Source: Mayamaea pseudoterrestris (lineage: Eukaryota). From it: a stretch of DNA of 64,000 bases. The notes beneath the pieces were generated by a model, which was not told the DNA's origin, searched no databases, and saw nothing but the letters and a program-made list of their open reading frames with translations. Shown piece after piece: positions 3 through 9,164 of this stretch. Positions within the stretch are counted from its first letter, which is position 1. Each line of letters opens with the position of its first letter. The position numbers and the translations under genes are program-made. The stretch spans positions 1,550,001 to 1,614,000 of the forward strand of contig BROI01000001.1 in assembly GCA_027923505.1 (NCBI GenBank). Direction: 5' to 3'.

Positions 3-2264
3 TGGCGCTGGCCGGCAGCCTTTCAGAAGACGATCCGTGATGGCCTGCCGCCGAGGTTTATCGATAAACCACCAGCCAACAAGAAACCTCAGCGAGTACC
101 AAAGGATGCGGAGGAGTTGGCCCTGGTTGTCGCCAAAGTGAACAAGCTCCGGGCCAGAAAGTACATCGCGGTGGGAGAAGTGCGCTCGTTGATCAACATG
201 TTTCCCGTTCCTAAAGGAGAGTCCGACATCCGATTGGTTTTCGATGCGACAGCGAGTGGATTGAACGAGGTTTTGTTTGCTCCATGGTTTGCGCTCCCCA
301 CTGTCAGTCAGATGGTACGAACAGTTGCACCGCAATACTATTGCGCGGACAATGATTTTGGCGAGATGTTCTACAACTTTTGGCTGCACGAAGAGCTCCG
401 GCCCTACACTGGGATCGACCTGACCGGCCTTTGTCCAGATGAGCGAAGCATCAGGGGAGGGCGGATATGGGAGCATTTCACGCGACCCACTATGGGACTG
501 GGGCCTTCACCCTATCAAGCCGTCCAAGGAGCACTGCAATTCAAGGGGTTGGTACTGGGGCGAGGATCCGCGGAAGCGTCCGCGGACTCCAACGCTTTCC
601 ACTGGGTCAGTGTTGAGCTGAACGTCCCGGGGATGCTCGCCTATGACCCCGCGCAACCATGGATCTCCAAGCGCCGAAAGGATGGTCGAGTGGCAGTAGA
701 TATGCACTTGTTTGTTGATGACTCACGAACGACAGCACCAACGGAAGAGCTTGCTTGGCAGGGCGGCAGTAGGATCGCAAAGCTGGCCTCCTGGTATGGA
801 CTACAAGATGCAGCGCGCAAGAGAAGGCCGCCGAGTCAAACACCTGGCGCATGGTCGGGATCTGTGGTTTCAACCACAGAGGAAGGAGTCTTTGTGTCGG
901 TGTCAGTGGAGAGATGGGGCAAGACGAGAGCGGCGATCGCGTGGATCAAGGAGCAGCTAAGCCAGGATCCCAAGGCGATTGAGTTCAAGCAATTGGAGCG
1001 CATCCGCGGCTTTTTGGTTTACGTGGGACAAACCTACCGATCCTTGGTACCTTACCTCAAAGGCATCCACCTCACGCTTGACAGTTGGCGGGGAAACCGA
1101 GATGAAGAGGGCTGGCGGCACGGAGGAAGCAAGCGAGTGGAAGAGCAGCAGGAGGCCGCGGAAGCTCCTGCGGGCGAGGACGACGCATCCGCCCCGGCTC
1201 GTGTGCGAGTGGTAGCTAGGCTGGCGGAAGATGTGGAAGCCTTGCTTAAGCTTACCAACCATGCGACTCCACCGCTGGTGAGCGTCCGCCCCAGCCAGAG
1301 CGCCAGAGTCGTCATTGGATTTGGAGACGCATCCGGGAGCGGCTTTGGGATCTCTGAAGCAGACAACAAGGGAGACTATGAAGTAATCCAATACGTCTAC
1401 GGTGTGTGGGAAGAGCGCGTGAGCAACGAGTCATCTAACTTTCGAGAGTTGAACAACTTTGTGGTGAGGATCGAGTCGGGGCTCTCCAATGGAACCATTC
1501 AGCCCGGAACAGAGTTCTTCCTTTTCACGGACAACTTCGTGACTGAGCGTGCCTTCTACAAGGGTACAAGCAAAGCCAAAGTGCTCTTTGAACTGGTCCT
1601 GCGCTTGCGAACACTCGAGATGATTGGCAAGATCTTTCTTCACGTTATTTGGTGCTCCGGCAAGCGAATGATTGCTCAAGGGACAGATGGTCTCTCGCGG
1701 GGAGATTTAGCTAACGGAGTCCTTGTGGGCGAGTCGATGCTGGATTTCGTTCCGATACACTTGTCTCCTTTGGAACGCTCTCCCGAGCTTGAAAGGTGGA
1801 TCCGCAGCTGGTGTCCAAGGAACGCGTTGTTCCTCAAGGAAGCGGATTGGTTCGACTGCGCTCACACAGAGACGCGCCCCATGTTCTGGTTCCCAGCTCC
1901 CGCCTTGAGTGATGTAGCTCTGGAGCAACTGTGCGAGGCTTGGCACGCCAGGCCACACGTATTCCATTGCATTGTGGTGCCGAGCTTAATGACGAGTCGG
2001 TGGAGGAGGCAGATGCGGAAAGCGAGCGATGTGATGTTTACCATTCCCATCGGAGCGAGCTTCTGGAGAGAGGAGATGTTTGAATCGCTAACACTAGCCC
2101 TTGTTTGCCCTTTGCTTCCGGCAAGTCCATGGCAGGTACGACGAATGGACCTGGCACGAGACACTGAACGCAATTTGTCAGGTGTGTGGGAAGGAGCTGA
2201 AGGTGAGCGAGGGGCTCAGGTGCGCAAATTTTGGCTACAAGCGAAAGCAATGGCCGGATTGTAA
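3..2264 (+). CDS. Pol: reverse transcriptase + RNase H + degenerate methyltransferase-like C-terminus (5'-truncated by window edge)
   Basis: Frame is open from base 3 (WRWPAAFQKTIRDG...). RT motifs RLVFDAT, DNDFGEMFYNF, MGLGPSPY, LFVDD. RNase H motifs FGDASGSGFG, SNFRELNN, FTDN, DGLSRG. C-terminal WFPAPAL...CIVVPSLMTSRW. Confidence 0.92.
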   Translation, partial: WRWPAAFQKTIRDGLPPRFIDKPPANKKPQRVPKDAEELALVVAKVNKLRARKYIAVGEVRSLINMFPVPKGESDIRLVFDATASGLNEVLFAPWFALPTVSQMVRTVAPQYYCADNDFGEMFYNFWLHEELRPYTGIDLTGLCPDERSIRGGRIWEHFTRPTMGLGPSPYQAVQGALQFKGLVLGRGSAEASADSNAFHWVSVELNVPGMLAYDPAQPWISKRRKDGRVAVDMHLFVDDSRTTAPTEELAWQGGSRIAKLASWYGLQDAARKRRPPSQTPGAWSGSVVSTTEEGVFVSVSVERWGKTRAAIAWIKEQLSQDPKAIEFKQLERIRGFLVYVGQTYRSLVPYLKGIHLTLDSWRGNRDEEGWRHGGSKRVEEQQEAAEAPAGEDDASAPARVRVVARLAEDVEALLKLTNHATPPLVSVRPSQSARVVIGFGDASGSGFGISEADNKGDYEVIQYVYGVWEERVSNESSNFRELNNFVVRIESGLSNGTIQPGTEFFLFTDNFVTERAFYKGTSKAKVLFELVLRLRTLEMIGKIFLHVIWCSGKRMIAQGTDGLSRGDLANGVLVGESMLDFVPIHLSPLERSPELERWIRSWCPRNALFLKEADWFDCAHTETRPMFWFPAPALSDVALEQLCEAWHARPHVFHCIVVPSLMTSRWRRQMRKASDVMFTIPIGASFWREEMFESLTLALVCPLLPASPWQVRRMDLARDTERNLSGVWEGAEGERGAQVRKFWLQAKAMAGL

Positions 2265-3642
2265 GGGTCTGTGGCATTTCCGATGCTACGAGGCAAGTGA
2301 CACGGATCAGTACCCCAGGCAGCGATCTCCAGGCGAAGAAGGAGGGTTTGAGGACGAGGAGTTGAAGGAAGCGGCGAGATTCCAAGTGGCTAGGCGCGGG
2401 GATCATCTACTGTGCCCTTTTCAGTGTGATCTTTGTCACTTTCGGAATATGAGGAGTAGTGAACCCATGGTGGAAAGGAGAGAGGATCAAGAACTGCTTA
2501 CCGCAGTACGGCGAGCAATCCTAGATGCATTCTGGTCGAGAGAACGATCCACTGTGGAATCAAATTGGCGAGAACGAAATCATATAGCCAAGGCAATGAA
2601 GACGTTTGGATTCATCAGCGAGCCCGAGCAGGCGGACAAGCAACCGTATCCAGTGCGAGATACCTGGGGCATGTTTCAAGCGGTAACTTTGCTCCACAGA
2701 TCCTTGGATGAAGGAAAGAACTCAGATACTATCCAGTTTGGAACAATGCGGCGTTTGCGAACCCATTTCACCAACGTGGCATTGACAAAGCCCGATGGTG
2801 TGACTCTGACGACCATTACGGGAATGCAAGGAGCACAGCACTTTAGCGACAGCCCGACGCACTCCTACTGGTTCAAGCGCTTTCTGGAAGGGTGTCACAA
2901 GCGCATGGGTGACAACGTGCAGCCCGATCGAGCGGTGACAATCGATATGATGTTGAAGCTGCAGGAGTTGCTTGAGCGAGACTGGATAGGAGCGAGTGTC
3001 AGTGAGAAGCTTGATGTGTGTCTGCTGGCGGGGTTTCTTCTCGCGGGGTTCGCAGGTGGACTGCGAGGAGAAGAAGTACCCAAGATTGAGCTTGAAGGAA
3101 CAATGGCTCATCTTGATGAAAGCTTGTCACATCCTCGACACCGCCATTTTACACTTGCATTGCAGGGGCGCGTGAAGGGTGAGCGAGGCGAGCGATGCCA
3201 CCTGTTGCCGCTGGCACTGGAGACTCATTCGGGGCTGAATGTGGGTCTGTGGTTTTGTCGGATCCTGGACGAGTATACTGCGCGAGGAATCGTCCGTGGG
3301 CCAGTGTTTCGAGCTGAAAGGCAGGGCAAGGCGTGTCGAGGATGTGTCGCTGACTTTAATCCAAGATTTCACGAGTACTTGCGGGAAGTACAGGGGCAGT
3401 GGCCAGAAGTTATAAGCTCGGCGGTAGACGTAACGGAGTTTGGCTTGTTGAGGTCCTTGCGCCGAGGATCGACAGCACAAGCGCGCAATCGAGGAGTCAA
3501 GGATAGCGTGATTGAGAGCAACAATCGATGGAGGAAGGTAGAACGGGCCAAAGGAAGGCAAGTCAAGGTTGGAATGATGGAACACTATTCTGACGTTGCG
3601 GCATCCATTGAGACCCTGTTGATCTATTCGGCGTCGTTGTAG
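2098..3642 (+). CDS. Tyrosine recombinase with N-terminal Cys/His zinc finger
   Basis: YR catalytic residues in order: GLRGEE (R), VKGE (K), RSLRRG (H/R-x-x-R box), NRW, MEHY (Y). Open from 2098, overlaps pol by ~165 nt in the +1 frame, first ATG only at 2449. Confidence 0.9.
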   Translation, partial: PLFALCFRQVHGRYDEWTWHETLNAICQVCGKELKVSEGLRCANFGYKRKQWPDCKGLWHFRCYEASDTDQYPRQRSPGEEGGFEDEELKEAARFQVARRGDHLLCPFQCDLCHFRNMRSSEPMVERREDQELLTAVRRAILDAFWSRERSTVESNWRERNHIAKAMKTFGFISEPEQADKQPYPVRDTWGMFQAVTLLHRSLDEGKNSDTIQFGTMRRLRTHFTNVALTKPDGVTLTTITGMQGAQHFSDSPTHSYWFKRFLEGCHKRMGDNVQPDRAVTIDMMLKLQELLERDWIGASVSEKLDVCLLAGFLLAGFAGGLRGEEVPKIELEGTMAHLDESLSHPRHRHFTLALQGRVKGERGERCHLLPLALETHSGLNVGLWFCRILDEYTARGIVRGPVFRAERQGKACRGCVADFNPRFHEYLREVQGQWPEVISSAVDVTEFGLLRSLRRGSTAQARNRGVKDSVIESNNRWRKVERAKGRQVKVGMMEHYSDVAASIETLLIYSASL

Positions 3643-3731
3643 CAGCAGCCCTGTTGACAACGCAGGAGCTGTGGGACTAATACACGATCACAAGCGACGC
3701 CGGATAGAGTGGAAAGCAGAGACCGAGGGGG

Positions 3732-4219
3732 GCAGGAAAGCGGAGCTTTCTAATTTATATGGAAGGCTCTGACCCGCTTCTTTTAATTCAGACCGCTGGG
3801 GGAACGGCAGTGCTTACATCTTCGCGTCAGTGCACTCTGTGGGGCAGCCACAGTTTGTAAATGATCCTCCCTGGCTTGTCCGTTCGTGCGGCCATAGGCT
3901 TGGCATTCTTAACACCAAAGAGCCAAGGATGAAGCGTTGAGTTCCTGACCGGATTCGCCAGGGGAAAGAAGCCACTACAGAGTGGTCTAAGGAGGGGGCT
4001 CACAGTAGGAATCCCAGCCGGGCTCTGGCGAAGAGTTCGCAAGGTGGAATCCTACTGGGCGCTTCAAATGCGAGGCGGACCCGGAAGTGAACTTAACCCC
4101 AAACTAGGTGCAAAAGCACTAGTGGTCTTTGTTATATGTTATTGAGGAGTCGTTTCGTCTTTTAGAGATATGAGAGTGTAGTTCGATCAAGGAGTCTAGA
4201 CAGAGTGAGCTGAAGTACC
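3732..4219 (+). repeat. Split direct repeat B1 (488 bp)
   Basis: Matches 4480-4967 at offset 748 with no differences seen by eye; both copies run GCAGGAAAGCGG...GCTGAAGTACC. Confidence 0.95.
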
Positions 4220-4479
4220 ACGACAAGCACACAAGCCAAGCTGGTATGGAACGAACACTGGACAGACGGATTGAAAGGGCTACCACTCGATTACCAACGG
4301 ACTTGCAATCTGGAGCAAATTGATGGCATTGGCAATTGAGGCCATCCAATTTGCAAGGAGACGAGAAACGATCAGTTGTTGCAAGGAAGGCTCGAACGTT
4401 GTCGACCCAGGAACCAAAAGAGATCTCTCTTGGGAGCAGCATAAAGGCTTTACTTGTTTAAATTTCCCACCCACCCACC
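4220..4479 (+). repeat. Putative A2 repeat (260 bp) between B1 and B2
   Basis: Occupies the A2 slot of the A1-ORFs-B1-A2-B2 layout; the expected A1 partner would lie upstream of the window. Confidence 0.6.
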
Positions 4480-4967
4480 GCAGGAAAGCGGAGCTTTCTA
4501 ATTTATATGGAAGGCTCTGACCCGCTTCTTTTAATTCAGACCGCTGGGGGAACGGCAGTGCTTACATCTTCGCGTCAGTGCACTCTGTGGGGCAGCCACA
4601 GTTTGTAAATGATCCTCCCTGGCTTGTCCGTTCGTGCGGCCATAGGCTTGGCATTCTTAACACCAAAGAGCCAAGGATGAAGCGTTGAGTTCCTGACCGG
4701 ATTCGCCAGGGGAAAGAAGCCACTACAGAGTGGTCTAAGGAGGGGGCTCACAGTAGGAATCCCAGCCGGGCTCTGGCGAAGAGTTCGCAAGGTGGAATCC
4801 TACTGGGCGCTTCAAATGCGAGGCGGACCCGGAAGTGAACTTAACCCCAAACTAGGTGCAAAAGCACTAGTGGTCTTTGTTATATGTTATTGAGGAGTCG
4901 TTTCGTCTTTTAGAGATATGAGAGTGTAGTTCGATCAAGGAGTCTAGACAGAGTGAGCTGAAGTACC
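4480..4967 (+). repeat. Split direct repeat B2, 3' terminus of element
   Basis: Second copy of B; similarity stops abruptly after GAAGTACC at 4967. Confidence 0.95.
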
Positions 4968-5381
4968 GATCCGAGGTCATTGCATCCGCTGAGCTGTCTC
5001 CATTAGATATGCATGACATTTACCAATGCAGTCATTTGTGGTTTGATTCGTCTGCAAGGCAATACCCACGAATGACTCTGCTCGTGCTATGCATTTTTCA
5101 ATGAACACGTAATTCAGCCGCGATGAAGGGATTAAAGTCACCTACTGTAAAACTACGCGTTTGTTACGAAGATACGCAAAAGTATCTTGACTCAAACCAG
5201 TGCTTGCAAGCTTATTTAGCTTGCGACGGAAGATTGACCAAGAGATTCTGCGTAAGTAAGCGAAAATCACTTACGAGGAACGCACACGTGTAATACAAGC
5301 TACGAGTGTTAGGCACTATCACAAACATACATTACAATGTCAATAACTATTTACATTACATTAAGAAGGCTCATAGTGCGC

Positions 5382-6548
5382 TTAAAGCGGCGTCGAAAGT
5401 TCCGACGAGCTTCCGCTGAAAATAGCCATTCGATCCTTGATACTCATGCGCGGCGAGCTTCGAACACTCTCCAGTTCCTGCTGCAAGCGATTGCATGTCT
5501 TTTCTGCTGCAGTGGCCGCGTTTCCGTTGCTCCGCCGACTATTGGCAATGGCGCGTTGCTGAGACTCCCAAGAAGGCATGACCCGGTCGGAGCTTTTGAT
5601 GCGCTGGACGCGCCGCATGCGAGATTCGCGCTTCTCTCCAAACCCGCTATCAAAGTTGGCGTAACGTTCATCCTTGTTTAAGCTGGACGTCTTGTTCGTG
5701 TGTTTGTAGCGACGAACGTCAGCAGGTGCAGTGTGAACGGAAAGGTTCAAGTCGTTGACGACCAAGTTGCTGCTGCAACTCTCCACTGGAGTGGCATTCA
5801 CATGCAACTCCTCCTCCTTGATAATCTTGGCGCCATCCTTTTTGCGTCGACTATTCGCAATGGCCCGCTGCTGCGACTCTAGCGACGGCATGACACGGTC
5901 GGAACTGTTGATGCGCTGCACCCGGCGCATGCGCGACTCGCGCTTCTCGCCGAAACCACTGTCAAAGTTGGCGTACCGGTCGTTCCTGTCGATTGGCTTC
6001 TTGGGACTGCGCGAAACGCAAGCGGGCGCCGTGTGAACGGAAATGTTCAACTCATTATTGTTGTTGTAGGTGCCATGAAGCTTTCGTGTCGGCGAACGTG
6101 TCGTTGGCAAGGGATCAGAGTCGCTCAATTCATCCGTGTGTTCGGTTTCCGTAATGTCCTCCAGCTCCAATCGCTTCAGCGAATCTTCAAAGTTCTTCTT
6201 GTCTTGGACAATCACTGGAGGAGCGATTGGCTCAACGTTCTTTTTGGGTGATTTCTTAGCGGAAGACTCCTTCTTCTTCTTGCTTGAATCATCATGCTGC
6301 TGCTTCTTTGGAGACTTGAGCTGCTTATTGACAATCTGCTGACTCTGCTTACGCTGACTGCTGCAAAAGGCGGGAGGAGCTTCCGACATATCCGATCCCC
6401 GACGCGTGGGTCGCTGCGGAGCAATCGAAGTCTTGTCGCTCCGTCGTAAACCAAAGGTGCCGACGGCGCGAGGATCGTCTCCAGTTTCGCAGGCGGTGCT
6501 CCAGCGATTGTCCGTGGCGTTGTGCGACATGACAGCAGTTGATGGCAT
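5382..6548 (-). CDS. Disordered Ser/Lys/Arg-rich hypothetical protein with an internal duplicated module
   Basis: ~388-aa ORF from ATG 6548; two copies of LNxSVHTAPA...RYANFDSGFGEKRESRMRRVQRIxSSDRVMPSxESQQRAIANSRR. Confidence 0.75.
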   Translation of the reverse strand: MPSTAVMSHNATDNRWSTACETGDDPRAVGTFGLRRSDKTSIAPQRPTRRGSDMSEAPPAFCSSQRKQSQQIVNKQLKSPKKQQHDDSSKKKKESSAKKSPKKNVEPIAPPVIVQDKKNFEDSLKRLELEDITETEHTDELSDSDPLPTTRSPTRKLHGTYNNNNELNISVHTAPACVSRSPKKPIDRNDRYANFDSGFGEKRESRMRRVQRINSSDRVMPSLESQQRAIANSRRKKDGAKIIKEEELHVNATPVESCSSNLVVNDLNLSVHTAPADVRRYKHTNKTSSLNKDERYANFDSGFGEKRESRMRRVQRIKSSDRVMPSWESQQRAIANSRRSNGNAATAAEKTCNRLQQELESVRSSPRMSIKDRMAIFSGSSSELSTPL

Positions 6549-7089
6549 GATTGATGGCAAAGGATTGAGTCAGTGAGGTAGCTGCAGAATTTTTGGCTAA
6601 CTAGGTCTTGTTGTGATTGAGAATGAACTATGGCCAAGTGCGGAGGCGAACATACCCAGTCGCTCGACGATGAACCAGTGAGCATGACAAAAACGGGACG
6701 GAGTCGCGCGCCATCGGAGTCATTCTTGGTCACAAGGCTTATTTACAACTGACACGACAACGGAGTATTGTTAGTCACAGGTGTAAATGATATTTAAATC
6801 AGAATGAAATGTCTGTGGGCAATACTATAGTGGGACCGGCTCGCTCGATGCAAAGAGGCTCCGCACAAAATCACCGTCGCCAAGGATCAAACGCCACTAA
6901 AACGCGCGATTGATTATAAAAGCATCTACCGTAGCAATTACTTTTAGTGGAAGAAAAGCGATAAAGTCAATAGAATCCGGCCAGGTTTACTAGCCGTATG
7001 ACGCCCTCTACGATGCCCTCTACGGTGTTGATGCTGCAAATATAATTTGCGACGGCAGACATGAAACTCGCGCTCGCGCTTAAACGATG

Positions 7090-8838
7090 CTACAGACTCT
7101 CACGCATTGACGCTCGCCGACTCGACGCAGCTTGCCGTTTGACGTCAAATCGATCAACTTTGGAAGGCGACCATTGATGCTTTTGCGAATCTGTCGCAGC
7201 AATCATTGCCTCGATGCGGCGATGCAAGTCGCGATTGTCCCTGTCGTGCAGTTTGATTAATTCGGCAAACTCGTAGACACGTCGTTCAAAGCGCGTGCGG
7301 TTCAAATGATCAACTTGAGCTTTCAAGGTGTTTTGCTCGACTTGCTCCTCCAGCTCGCGCACCTCCTTTTCGTATTGCTCGTCCATGGTTTTTAACTTGT
7401 CGTGCTCCTCGGAAACGCGCTTGTGGTGAGCATCCAGTCGCTTCTTGTAGTCGTCCAGTTCGACAGTCTTTTCCTCCAGTCGCGCATTGTTGATGCGAAG
7501 GTTTTGACAATTGGTTCGCATGGTTTGATTGTGTTCGCGAATTTGGGCATTCTCGCGTCGAAGTAGATCAGCCGCTCGTTGGTTGCTTTCAATATCAGAT
7601 GGACTGGGCATTAAGGCACCATTCATTTGCTGGTACTCGGTGCTAAACTCGGCCTTGAGCTTGCGCATGGTTTTGGAGCGGTTCTTTTCAATGGCGGCAA
7701 GCTCCGAATGCATTCCTTCCTCGGCTGCTGTGAGTTGAGCCTCCAATTGTTTTATGCGCAGCAAGTCCTCCTTCATTGTGTTGACAATCTTTGGTATAAA
7801 CGGCTTTTGCTTCACGTAGTCACTCAGGCGTCGTGTTGGACGATTGCTGCCGAGTGGAGCCACCTCGCGGTTATGTGGCGAAGAAATTGCAACCGGACTG
7901 CGCAGGGACGAGCGTCCGCGATGAGTTGGCGACGACTGCGACGGGCTCAGCGGATCAAAGCAATCAATGTTTTCTGCCGTCACGTTTGATTGACGAGAGT
8001 CCGACATGACCGAAGAAGGCGACGCCATCGCAGTCAATTTGCTCTTGCTGCTGCTCTTGCCGACGGGACTCGTAACGGGCGATGCAAGTATGTTGCTGCT
8101 TCCGTTGCGCTTCATCTTCTTATCCTTATCCTTCGATTCAGACTTTTTAGTCTTTTTTGACTTCTTTTCCGACGTACGTTTCTTCTGCTTCCGCAAACTA
8201 ACATCCTCGCCACTGTCGTTCGAGTCAAGCTCCACCAGAGTAAAAGTATTTTCGACATTGACATGGCGATACCGTGGTGTCCGCACGCAGGACTGTGGCG
8301 AGTCGTACTGAAACTGCGAAAGGCTTGCGACGCTCGTATCTAAATGATCTTGCACTGAAACGTCATTGTCATCATCATCGTCCACATCGAGCGAAAGGTA
8401 GCTCCTACTTATTGAAGATGCATCCGGTCTGGGAGTTGGTGATAGTCGCTGCAATTCATCGTCAAGCGAAAGACTGCTGCTGTTGCTGCCGTCCAGATCG
8501 TTCTTTTTTGTTTTCCGTCGCGACCCTTTCGAGGAACTCGATGATCGCCGGGACGATGATCTACTTCCGGTACTTACAGCTGACAAAGGCGATTGCTCCT
8601 GCCGTCCCGATGCACTCAATCGCCGCTTGGTATCCGGACTTGTCGGATGATGCGCCAGCAACATTGTCAAGTCATTGTTGCTGCCACTGGCTTGAAAGTT
8701 CTTGCCGAGGCGACCAAGAAAGCCTCCTCCAGGAGAGTTGGGGCTGTCGGGTGCTGACTCGAATTGTTCTTGCTGAAGTTTGTTGGCAATGAGAGACGAG
8801 GATGTTTGATGGGAGCGACTGCGAGCAATAAATGTCAT
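7090..8838 (-). CDS. Hypothetical protein, disordered N-terminus + C-terminal coiled coil
   Basis: 582-aa ORF; Ser/Lys-rich N-half, heptad-rich C-terminal region (LRRENAQIREHN...YEKEVRELEEQVE). Confidence 0.8.
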   Translation of the reverse strand: MTFIARSRSHQTSSSLIANKLQQEQFESAPDSPNSPGGGFLGRLGKNFQASGSNNDLTMLLAHHPTSPDTKRRLSASGRQEQSPLSAVSTGSRSSSRRSSSSSKGSRRKTKKNDLDGSNSSSLSLDDELQRLSPTPRPDASSISRSYLSLDVDDDDDNDVSVQDHLDTSVASLSQFQYDSPQSCVRTPRYRHVNVENTFTLVELDSNDSGEDVSLRKQKKRTSEKKSKKTKKSESKDKDKKMKRNGSSNILASPVTSPVGKSSSKSKLTAMASPSSVMSDSRQSNVTAENIDCFDPLSPSQSSPTHRGRSSLRSPVAISSPHNREVAPLGSNRPTRRLSDYVKQKPFIPKIVNTMKEDLLRIKQLEAQLTAAEEGMHSELAAIEKNRSKTMRKLKAEFSTEYQQMNGALMPSPSDIESNQRAADLLRRENAQIREHNQTMRTNCQNLRINNARLEEKTVELDDYKKRLDAHHKRVSEEHDKLKTMDEQYEKEVRELEEQVEQNTLKAQVDHLNRTRFERRVYEFAELIKLHDRDNRDLHRRIEAMIAATDSQKHQWSPSKVDRFDVKRQAASSRRASMRESL

Positions 8839-9164
8839 CTTTGGTAGGAGGCTGAATAGGAGATCGTCTATAGAGGCAGCTTCTCTCGTCAGTGATTCTA
8901 TCTACTATCGTATACCGTGAAGGAGAGCTTAAGAAATGAATGAAGGGGATGGCTTGTCGTCGTGGCAAGACTGACGAGTTTGCGATGCAAGCTTGCGAAG
9001 AATCGGATGGACATTTGAATGACGTCACGGTCATTCAAGTCGTTCATGCACGACCGGATTTAAAAACGGTGCGACATGAGAATCCTCGATGGATCCATGC
9101 GTTTTTGTTCCTGATCGAAGAACAGAATATTCATCCTCAAAGAAGTGCTTTCTATACATCTACC

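Follow-up and report, generated by a model that had tools for sequence, protein, structure and literature searches.

The window, by which we mean the whole 64,000-nucleotide stretch of DNA analysed here, opens inside a mobile element that is already under way at its first base. On the forward strand the element passes in order through a reverse transcriptase (RT)/RNase H ORF, a tyrosine recombinase ORF and the repeats B1, A2 and B2. The positions of these features and of the short tracts that border the repeats are as follows.

3..2264, + strand: reverse transcriptase/RNase H ORF (P0001), its 5' end cut by the window start
2101..3642, + strand: tyrosine recombinase ORF (P0002) with a Cys/His-rich N-terminal part, assigned from an AlphaFold model and Foldseek
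3702..3732, + strand: purine-rich tract ending in six G (3727-3732), directly before B1 and overlapping its first base
3732..4219, + strand: repeat B1, equal to 4480-4967 at 488/488 bases
4220..4461, + strand: repeat A2; contigs of runs X1 and X8 leave A at 4461
4462..4479, + strand: T/C-rich spacer of 18 nt, found at the A2|B2 junction only and outside repeat A
4480..4967, + strand: repeat B2, equal to B1, its last base being the right end of the element

Neither ORF could be assigned to a Pfam family, even at E 10 (0 families for P0001 and for P0002). A profile built from the first ORF and 15 of its relatives (16 sequences) gave 11 matches in the PDB, all of them to reverse transcriptases (MMLV, XMRV and Ty3) with E values of 0.08-0.7, and the alignment to MMLV covers the YVDD and motif-B stretches. 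The AlphaFold model of ORF 3-2264 (pLDDT 83) had MMLV RT as its best Foldseek match (E 2.9e-15), with further matches to the foamy virus, CaMV and Ty3 RTs. Judged by this modelled fold, the first ORF encodes an RT of the LTR/retroviral type. For the recombinase ORF, 2101-3642, a profile search of the PDB returned 0 matches. The AlphaFold model of this ORF (pLDDT 77) matched Cre recombinase best (E 9e-5), followed by XerH, the Tn1549 integrase, lambda integrase and Flp, and the second ORF is predicted from its model to encode a tyrosine recombinase, not a DDE integrase. Residues R322 and Y496 of the recombinase are invariant across 19 relatives and can be read as putatively catalytic. The N-terminus of the recombinase (window 2101-2500, approximately residues 20-125 of P0002) is rich in Cys and His, with C29, C41, C54, C62, C109, C112 and H113 invariant in 19 relatives; this part looks like a zinc-binding module placed before the recombinase fold.

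Because an RT fold and a Cre-like fold occur here together with identical B copies that have A2 between them, the element in the window is, on the evidence of the models, a DIRS-order tyrosine-recombinase retrotransposon with split direct repeats, probably in the Ngaro/PAT layout. An earlier note on this DNA had identified 3732-4219 as the B repeat of a tyrosine-recombinase retroelement, and this identification is borne out by the identity of B1 and B2 and by upstream ORFs with the modelled folds of a retroviral/LTR-type RT and of a Cre-like recombinase. We take a methyltransferase domain to be what separates PAT and DIRS1, in which it is present, from Ngaro, in which it is absent; the window element is assigned to Ngaro/PAT jointly. 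The lineage to which P0001 and P0002 belong would escape domain-based annotation, having no Pfam match, yet RT-type and Cre-like folds. According to PMC8547959 and PMC4157794, Ngaro elements are laid out as A1-[ORFs]-B1A2B2. The window element resembles Ngaro/PAT in its RT/RNase H ORF and tyrosine-recombinase ORF followed by B1-A2-B2 with identical B copies; unlike Ngaro/PAT, both of its proteins escape Pfam.

A metagenome scan with the recombinase identified 80 loci with 32-43% protein identity, and 113 related stretches were found. The same recombinase scan of viral contigs and of prokaryote genome contigs detected no relatives. Several diverged copies, approximately 81-95% alike, of the recombinase 3' end plus the first 120 nt of B (window 3499-3853) are present in run X1, from which it follows that the retrotransposon family has older members in that genome. 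One of these copies has 3797-4072 skipped or replaced.

The two B copies of the window are separated by 260 nt. In run X1 a 488-nt unitig has exactly the borders of B, and the unitig depth is 121-124 for B and A as against 62.6 for the internal part, a ratio of about two. Contigs in runs X1 and X8 could be traced through A up to 4461, after which they enter a different sequence that is common to both and that we read as the probable junction of A1 with the internal part. Since the contigs leave A at 4461 for this common sequence and the depth of A is doubled, a second A copy (A1) is implied, which would lie upstream of the window. With repeat A ending at 4461, the 18 nt from 4462 to 4479 occur only at the A2|B2 junction. 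In the related locus L003, a 19-nt C-rich stretch (5536-5554) is in the same way missing after the second A copy. Taken together, B and A repeat with a period of 610 to 875 nt, depending on the element, a variability expected of a U3-like region.

When the borders of B were compared among relatives, several motifs were found to recur. The 30 nt before B1 of the window are 83% purines. In 10 elements the B1/B2 repeat itself defines where B1 starts; nine of them (the window, L003, L006, L008, L009, L016, L021, L024 and L027) have a run of at least four G there, compared with a fraction of 0.043 of background windows. The purine share of the preceding 30 nt in these nine elements is 63-83% at B1, versus 20-43% at B2. 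A purine/G tract after the recombinase ORF was also seen in most of the other relatives. The tract at 3702-3732 is placed like the polypurine tract before U3 and, from its composition and position, may function as a plus-strand primer. At the opposite border, the right end of the element has the form GT-N(0-2)-ACC (window 4215-4219 and 4963-4967; ...GTACC). This terminus is common to the window, L006 (3694-3700) and five loci of subfamily G-A (L022, L047, L049, L059 and L064), and it is kept across subfamilies whose B sequences otherwise cannot be aligned. A C-rich motif lies at most 40 nt before B2 in 9 of the 10 elements, compared with 0.041 of background windows. These border motifs of B, namely the purine/G tract, the terminus and the A2|B2 spacer, are the firmest new facts of this analysis. 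The passages on the Ngaro layout in PMC8547959 and PMC4157794 contain no mention of a purine/G tract before B1 or of a C-rich spacer at A2|B2.

Two interpretations of the spacer were considered and rejected. An RNA helix between the G tract and the C-rich spacer could have, on reading the letters, at most three contiguous G-C pairs; the spacer is not a copy of a primer-binding site beside A1, because the sequence after A1 differs. The complement of the C-rich spacer had no match beyond chance in the part of the element that lies in the window.

Several other arrangements of repeats and ORFs were observed. Loci L028, L035 and L041 have a C-run motif (CCCACCCCC-like) 290-390 nt past the G tract with no second B copy after it, which is at odds with a simple B1-A2-spacer-B2 picture. 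In one subfamily (L022/L061, L047, L049/L050, L059/L060 and L064), five independent insertion sites contain a single B followed by unrelated flanks, with no A2-B2; either the split repeat is lacking in this lineage, or each copy has lost A2-B2 by recombination between B1 and B2. Locus L003 has an ORF of 887 aa (6340-9003) after its second A copy. This ORF resembles neither the RT ORF nor any Pfam family and presumably corresponds to the family's 5' (Gag-like) ORF; that L003 is arranged in tandem may reflect an assembly path through the repeats. In the window itself, downstream of the element, two direct-repeat pairs (5533-5989 and 5715-6056), approximately 81% alike and 300-312 nt apart, lie inside a minus-strand ORF at 5382-6560.

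The earlier note had further proposed, from complementary segments seen by eye, that B folds into one large nested sense-strand RNA. All of these segments are present in the proposed places, and 8 of the 9 helices are fully paired when G-U is allowed, the remaining one, 4003-14/4046-57, being paired at 11/12 positions. The predicted hairpins within B1 and the proposed long-range helices are listed here, with pair probabilities given as ensemble values computed in three sequence contexts.

3741..3771, + strand: 5' hairpin with a 12-bp stem and an A/T-rich loop; one G-U in the 8-bp core proposed earlier (3743-50/3762-69)
3837..3853, + strand: small hairpin CTGTGG/CCACAG, pair probability 0.997
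3899..3927, + strand: hairpin CTTGGC/GCCAAG, pair probability 0.74-0.89
3971..3986, + strand: small hairpin GCCACT/AGTGGT, pair probability 0.89
4003..4057, + strand: 55-nt composite hairpin with an outer stem of 11/12 bp and a capping stem of 7-8 bp, predicted fold
4103..4123, + strand: 3' hairpin ACTAG-GTGC/GCAC-CTAGT, pair probability 0.66-0.89
3820..4075, + strand: long-range pairing as proposed, 3820-27 with 4068-75 and 3930-36 with 4060-66; mean pair probability 0.0 in each of the three contexts

The local part of the proposal stands, whereas the nesting does not. The minimum-energy fold contains all seven local hairpins, whose pair probabilities are 0.66-0.99 (0.98-0.99 for 3743-50/3762-69, 0.84 for 4003-57 and 0.99 for the inner 4020-38), but both long-range helices have a probability of 0.0, and the outer 5' helix 3738-43/3774-79 reaches just 0.001-0.20 over the three contexts. 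The proposed helices alone give an energy of -86.4 kcal/mol, the best fold that enforces them -136.0 kcal/mol and the unconstrained minimum -149.0 kcal/mol, a cost of 13 kcal/mol for enforcement. The helix 3930-36/4060-66 forms only when 3928-4068 is folded alone, in which case it closes a three-way junction (z -3.3). Counted by minimum length (6, 7, 8 and 9 bp), 3732-4125 has 161, 57, 24 and 9 potential stems, and the corresponding means of 100 dinucleotide shuffles are 159.5, 60.9, 24.3 and 8.8; the long-range 8-bp helix is one of the 24 possible stems of at least 8 bp. Since these counts equal those of the shuffles, nesting helices found by eye are expected by chance.

Folding energies were also compared with those of dinucleotide shuffles on both strands. 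The 394-nt region 3732-4125 had z -2.72 on the plus strand, where 2 of 100 shuffles folded as well, and -1.01 on the minus strand; the whole repeat 3732-4219 had only -1.58 and +0.14, respectively (60 shuffles). Sliding windows of 150 nt ranged from +0.6 to -1.6 in B and from +1.3 to -2.25 in the upstream coding region, that is, with no difference between the two. The G-U pairs that had been taken as a sign of selection on plus-strand RNA do not bear this meaning, the plus strand being simply G-rich (143 G vs 107 C). The suggestion of a ribozyme or a known RNA family found no match in Rfam 15 (0 at E<=10 in window 3500-5100), and 20 related loci (131 kb) gave 0 Rfam matches at the gathering score, ribozymes included; B shows no sign of a ribozyme. 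Searching the window and 45 related loci with a covariance model for the central domain (3928-4068) recovered that domain from the two window copies and from none of the loci. B is not one large structured RNA, and the proposed nested fold is no more than chance gives. A fold assembled by eye from helices of 6-8 bp is no evidence of structure.

The local hairpins were then considered singly. Excised with borders that were picked post hoc, the 5' hairpin had z -3.4 on the plus and -1.4 on the minus strand, 4003-4057 had -3.8 and -2.9, and 4103-4123 had -3.4 and -3.8; the values for 3899-3927 and 3837-53 were -2.1 and -1.5, with 16 of 200 shuffles folding as well as the latter. Of 200 shuffles, 198-199 folded less well than the 4003-4057 hairpin, and the same range applies to the 5' hairpin with its 12-bp stem, again for post hoc borders. 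Two of the three best hairpins (4003-4057 and 4103-4123) fold about equally well on the minus strand. The hairpin at 4003-4057 is the least random-looking local feature, and the 5' hairpin is the longest local stem in the stem count of 3732-4125.

For the 5' hairpin, a comparison with relatives could be made at the start of B. The first 70 nt of B had a mean z of -0.79 over 41 loci, compared with -0.17 and -0.21 in two controls (one-sided p 0.04, for sequences that are not independent), and a start-of-B hairpin with z below -1 was found in just 4 of the 10 elements with a repeat-defined start. L016 and L017 preserve their 5' hairpin through two double-sided changes. A model built from the G tract and 5' hairpin of the window, L016 and L017 recovered the sequences that it was trained on, with their B2 copies, and apart from these just two matches, both weak (E 0.19 and 4.6) and placed at the B starts of L026 and L047. 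Some of the differences listed for the diverged copies of run X1 are insertions of T within the 5' hairpin loop, following 3757 and 3759; another, 3785 A>C, affects an unpaired base. A hairpin often comes after the G-run, yet it is not universal.

The sequence of B itself gave nothing beyond chance when blastn and nhmmer were run against the DNA of the 80 metagenome loci. Among the relatives, the region after the G-run was aligned within five subfamilies (G-A, G-B, G-D, G-E and G-C), and the RNAalifold energy of each alignment was compared with that of column-shuffled alignments. On the plus strand the z values, in this order of subfamilies, were -3.3, -6.8, -5.3, -4.2 and -2.4, and on the minus strand -3.5, -11.6, -4.9, -1.0 and -1.1, where the alignments of the smaller subfamilies, which start at the G-run, may extend past B into A. 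The alignments were thus better than column shuffles in five of five subfamilies on the plus strand and in three of five on the minus strand. In 20 coding-region controls from the same loci z ranged from -2.5 to +2.18, with 1 of 20 at or below -2.4. Helices common to both strands comprise 383 Watson-Crick cells out of 415, 12 G-U and 10 A-C, and these last two figures deprive the G-U argument of its force in the relatives also. In G-A, the largest subfamily, 22 pairs are changed on both sides, a count that column shuffles also reach (mean 15.9, maximum 25); against the tool's own shuffle control (10.2) it was reached in 0 of 500, but the structure tested there came from that very alignment. 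Downstream of the G-run, the relatives keep conserved pairing potential, consistently on the plus strand, though the helices common to both strands, with 12 G-U against 10 A-C cells, favour neither strand. Given this conserved pairing in five subfamilies, it is plausible that this part of the element has some structure acting in cis, so that the earlier idea of a cis-acting RNA retains this much, but not a single large fold.

The reading that we prefer, and to which we would give about an even chance, is that B is a U3-like 3' segment of a DIRS-order element with a few stable local hairpins, some of them probably cis-acting, and not one large fold. B would be 3' untranslated and would span the distance from the purine/G tract just past the recombinase ORF to the conserved right terminus (...GTACC), carrying the predicted hairpins at 3741-3771, 4003-4057 and 4103-4123 and three small ones. 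Some of these hairpins are probably active in cis, on single-stranded nucleic acid, while the element replicates. Their substrate would be either the sense RNA or plus-strand DNA starting at the purine tract, and possible roles are in priming, strand transfer or 3'-end definition. The weak thermodynamic signal in the window's own B, with a whole-repeat z of -1.58 and sliding windows like those of coding sequence, speaks against this reading.

These same values would fit a B that is no more than a repeat of 3' sequence, untranslated or regulatory (promoter, polyadenylation or spacer), with hairpins such as any 500-nt G-rich sequence contains and none of them selected. In keeping with such a segment, the stem counts equal those of shuffles, B is without a sequence or structure counterpart in the relatives, and the B plus A period varies from 610 to 875 nt, as for a U3-like region. 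We nevertheless consider the absence of any selected hairpin somewhat unlikely, in view of the z of -2.72 for the 394-nt core, the two hairpins (4003-4057 and the 5' hairpin, borders post hoc) that each beat 198-199 of 200 shuffles, and conserved pairing far above the coding controls in all five subfamilies.

It is unlikely, in our judgement, that the hairpins are instead inverted repeats in double-stranded DNA, bound by the recombinase of the element or by transcription factors of the host, and not RNA structure. Tyrosine recombinases do bind inverted-repeat sites (Cre/loxP, FLP/FRT), two of the three best hairpins are about as good on the minus strand (z -2.9 and -3.8), the signal is as strong or stronger on the minus strand in three of five subfamilies, and the helices common to both strands are almost purely Watson-Crick (383/415 cells), with G-U about as frequent as A-C. 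The expected recombination site, however, is the B|A junction at 4219/4220, where no inverted repeat was seen on reading the sequence; moreover, G-E and G-C have a signal on the plus strand only, and the whole-repeat z is better on the plus strand.

A replication cycle resembling that of LTR elements, in a lineage invisible to Pfam, was also considered and appears to us quite unlikely. Plus-strand DNA would be primed at the purine/G tract, making B the true equivalent of U3, and the RNA would end near the C-rich spacer at A2|B2. The integrated form A1-int-B1-A2-spacer-B2 would represent a two-repeat circle opened by the recombinase at the B|A border, and the start-of-B hairpin, lying beside both tracts, would be a signal for priming or strand transfer. 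Independently of such a cycle, B and its tract resemble the U3 and polypurine tract of LTR retrotransposons and retroviruses: a purine-rich tract with a terminal G-run lies directly 5' of a repeated 3' segment; like U3, the B segment of the window is long, length-variable and fast-evolving, and the RT is of the retroviral/LTR type. Unlike LTR elements, the window element is without the usual LTR arrangement, its integration is by a tyrosine recombinase, and no tRNA-type primer-binding site was found, the sequence after A1 in the contigs not beginning with TGG.

Finally, one large nested sense-strand RNA, closed by 3820-27/4068-75 and 3930-36/4060-66 and serving as a scaffold or ribozyme, is very improbable: its segments are complementary, 3928-4068 alone gives a three-way junction (z -3.3) and the plus strand folds better than the minus strand, but the long-range helices have probability 0.0 in the whole repeat, the enforced fold is 13 kcal/mol worse, the 24 alternative stems of at least 8 bp are a chance number, there are no Rfam matches, ribozymes included, and the central domain is without a counterpart in 45 relatives.

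Local cis-acting hairpins in a U3-like B, the reading preferred here, can be set beside other retroelements. Cis-acting RNA structures are known from retroelement UTRs, among them the 3' UTR elements of R2 and of stringent LINEs and the HDV-like and hammerhead ribozymes. Unlike these, B of the window is without an Rfam family and without a conserved architecture common to its relatives. A literature search found no paper joining Ngaro, RNA secondary structure and tyrosine recombinase, and a search on ribozyme and tyrosine recombinase found no DIRS in titles or abstracts. For DIRS-1, PMC7192593 describes the start of reverse transcription as unknown and a 3' hairpin of the mRNA as the suggested primer. 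Like that hairpin, those of the window belong to a tyrosine-recombinase retrotransposon and lie in its 3' terminal repeat region. Where the window element has split direct repeats, DIRS-1 has terminal repeats that are inverted, together with an internal complementary region; its proposed primer is a 3' hairpin of the mRNA, and the hairpins of the window are predictions from DNA. In the light of the 3' hairpin suggested for DIRS-1, B may have a role in priming or strand transfer.

The solid results of this work are the identity of the element and the conserved border motifs. The initiation and completion of reverse transcription in tyrosine-recombinase retrotransposons is a standing question, as stated in PMC7192593. 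The LTR-like cycle, if true, would provide the DIRS order with a concrete model of priming for the first time. Should the B hairpins, the purine tract and the junction spacer serve as signals in replication, they would offer testable positions for priming and strand transfer in these elements.
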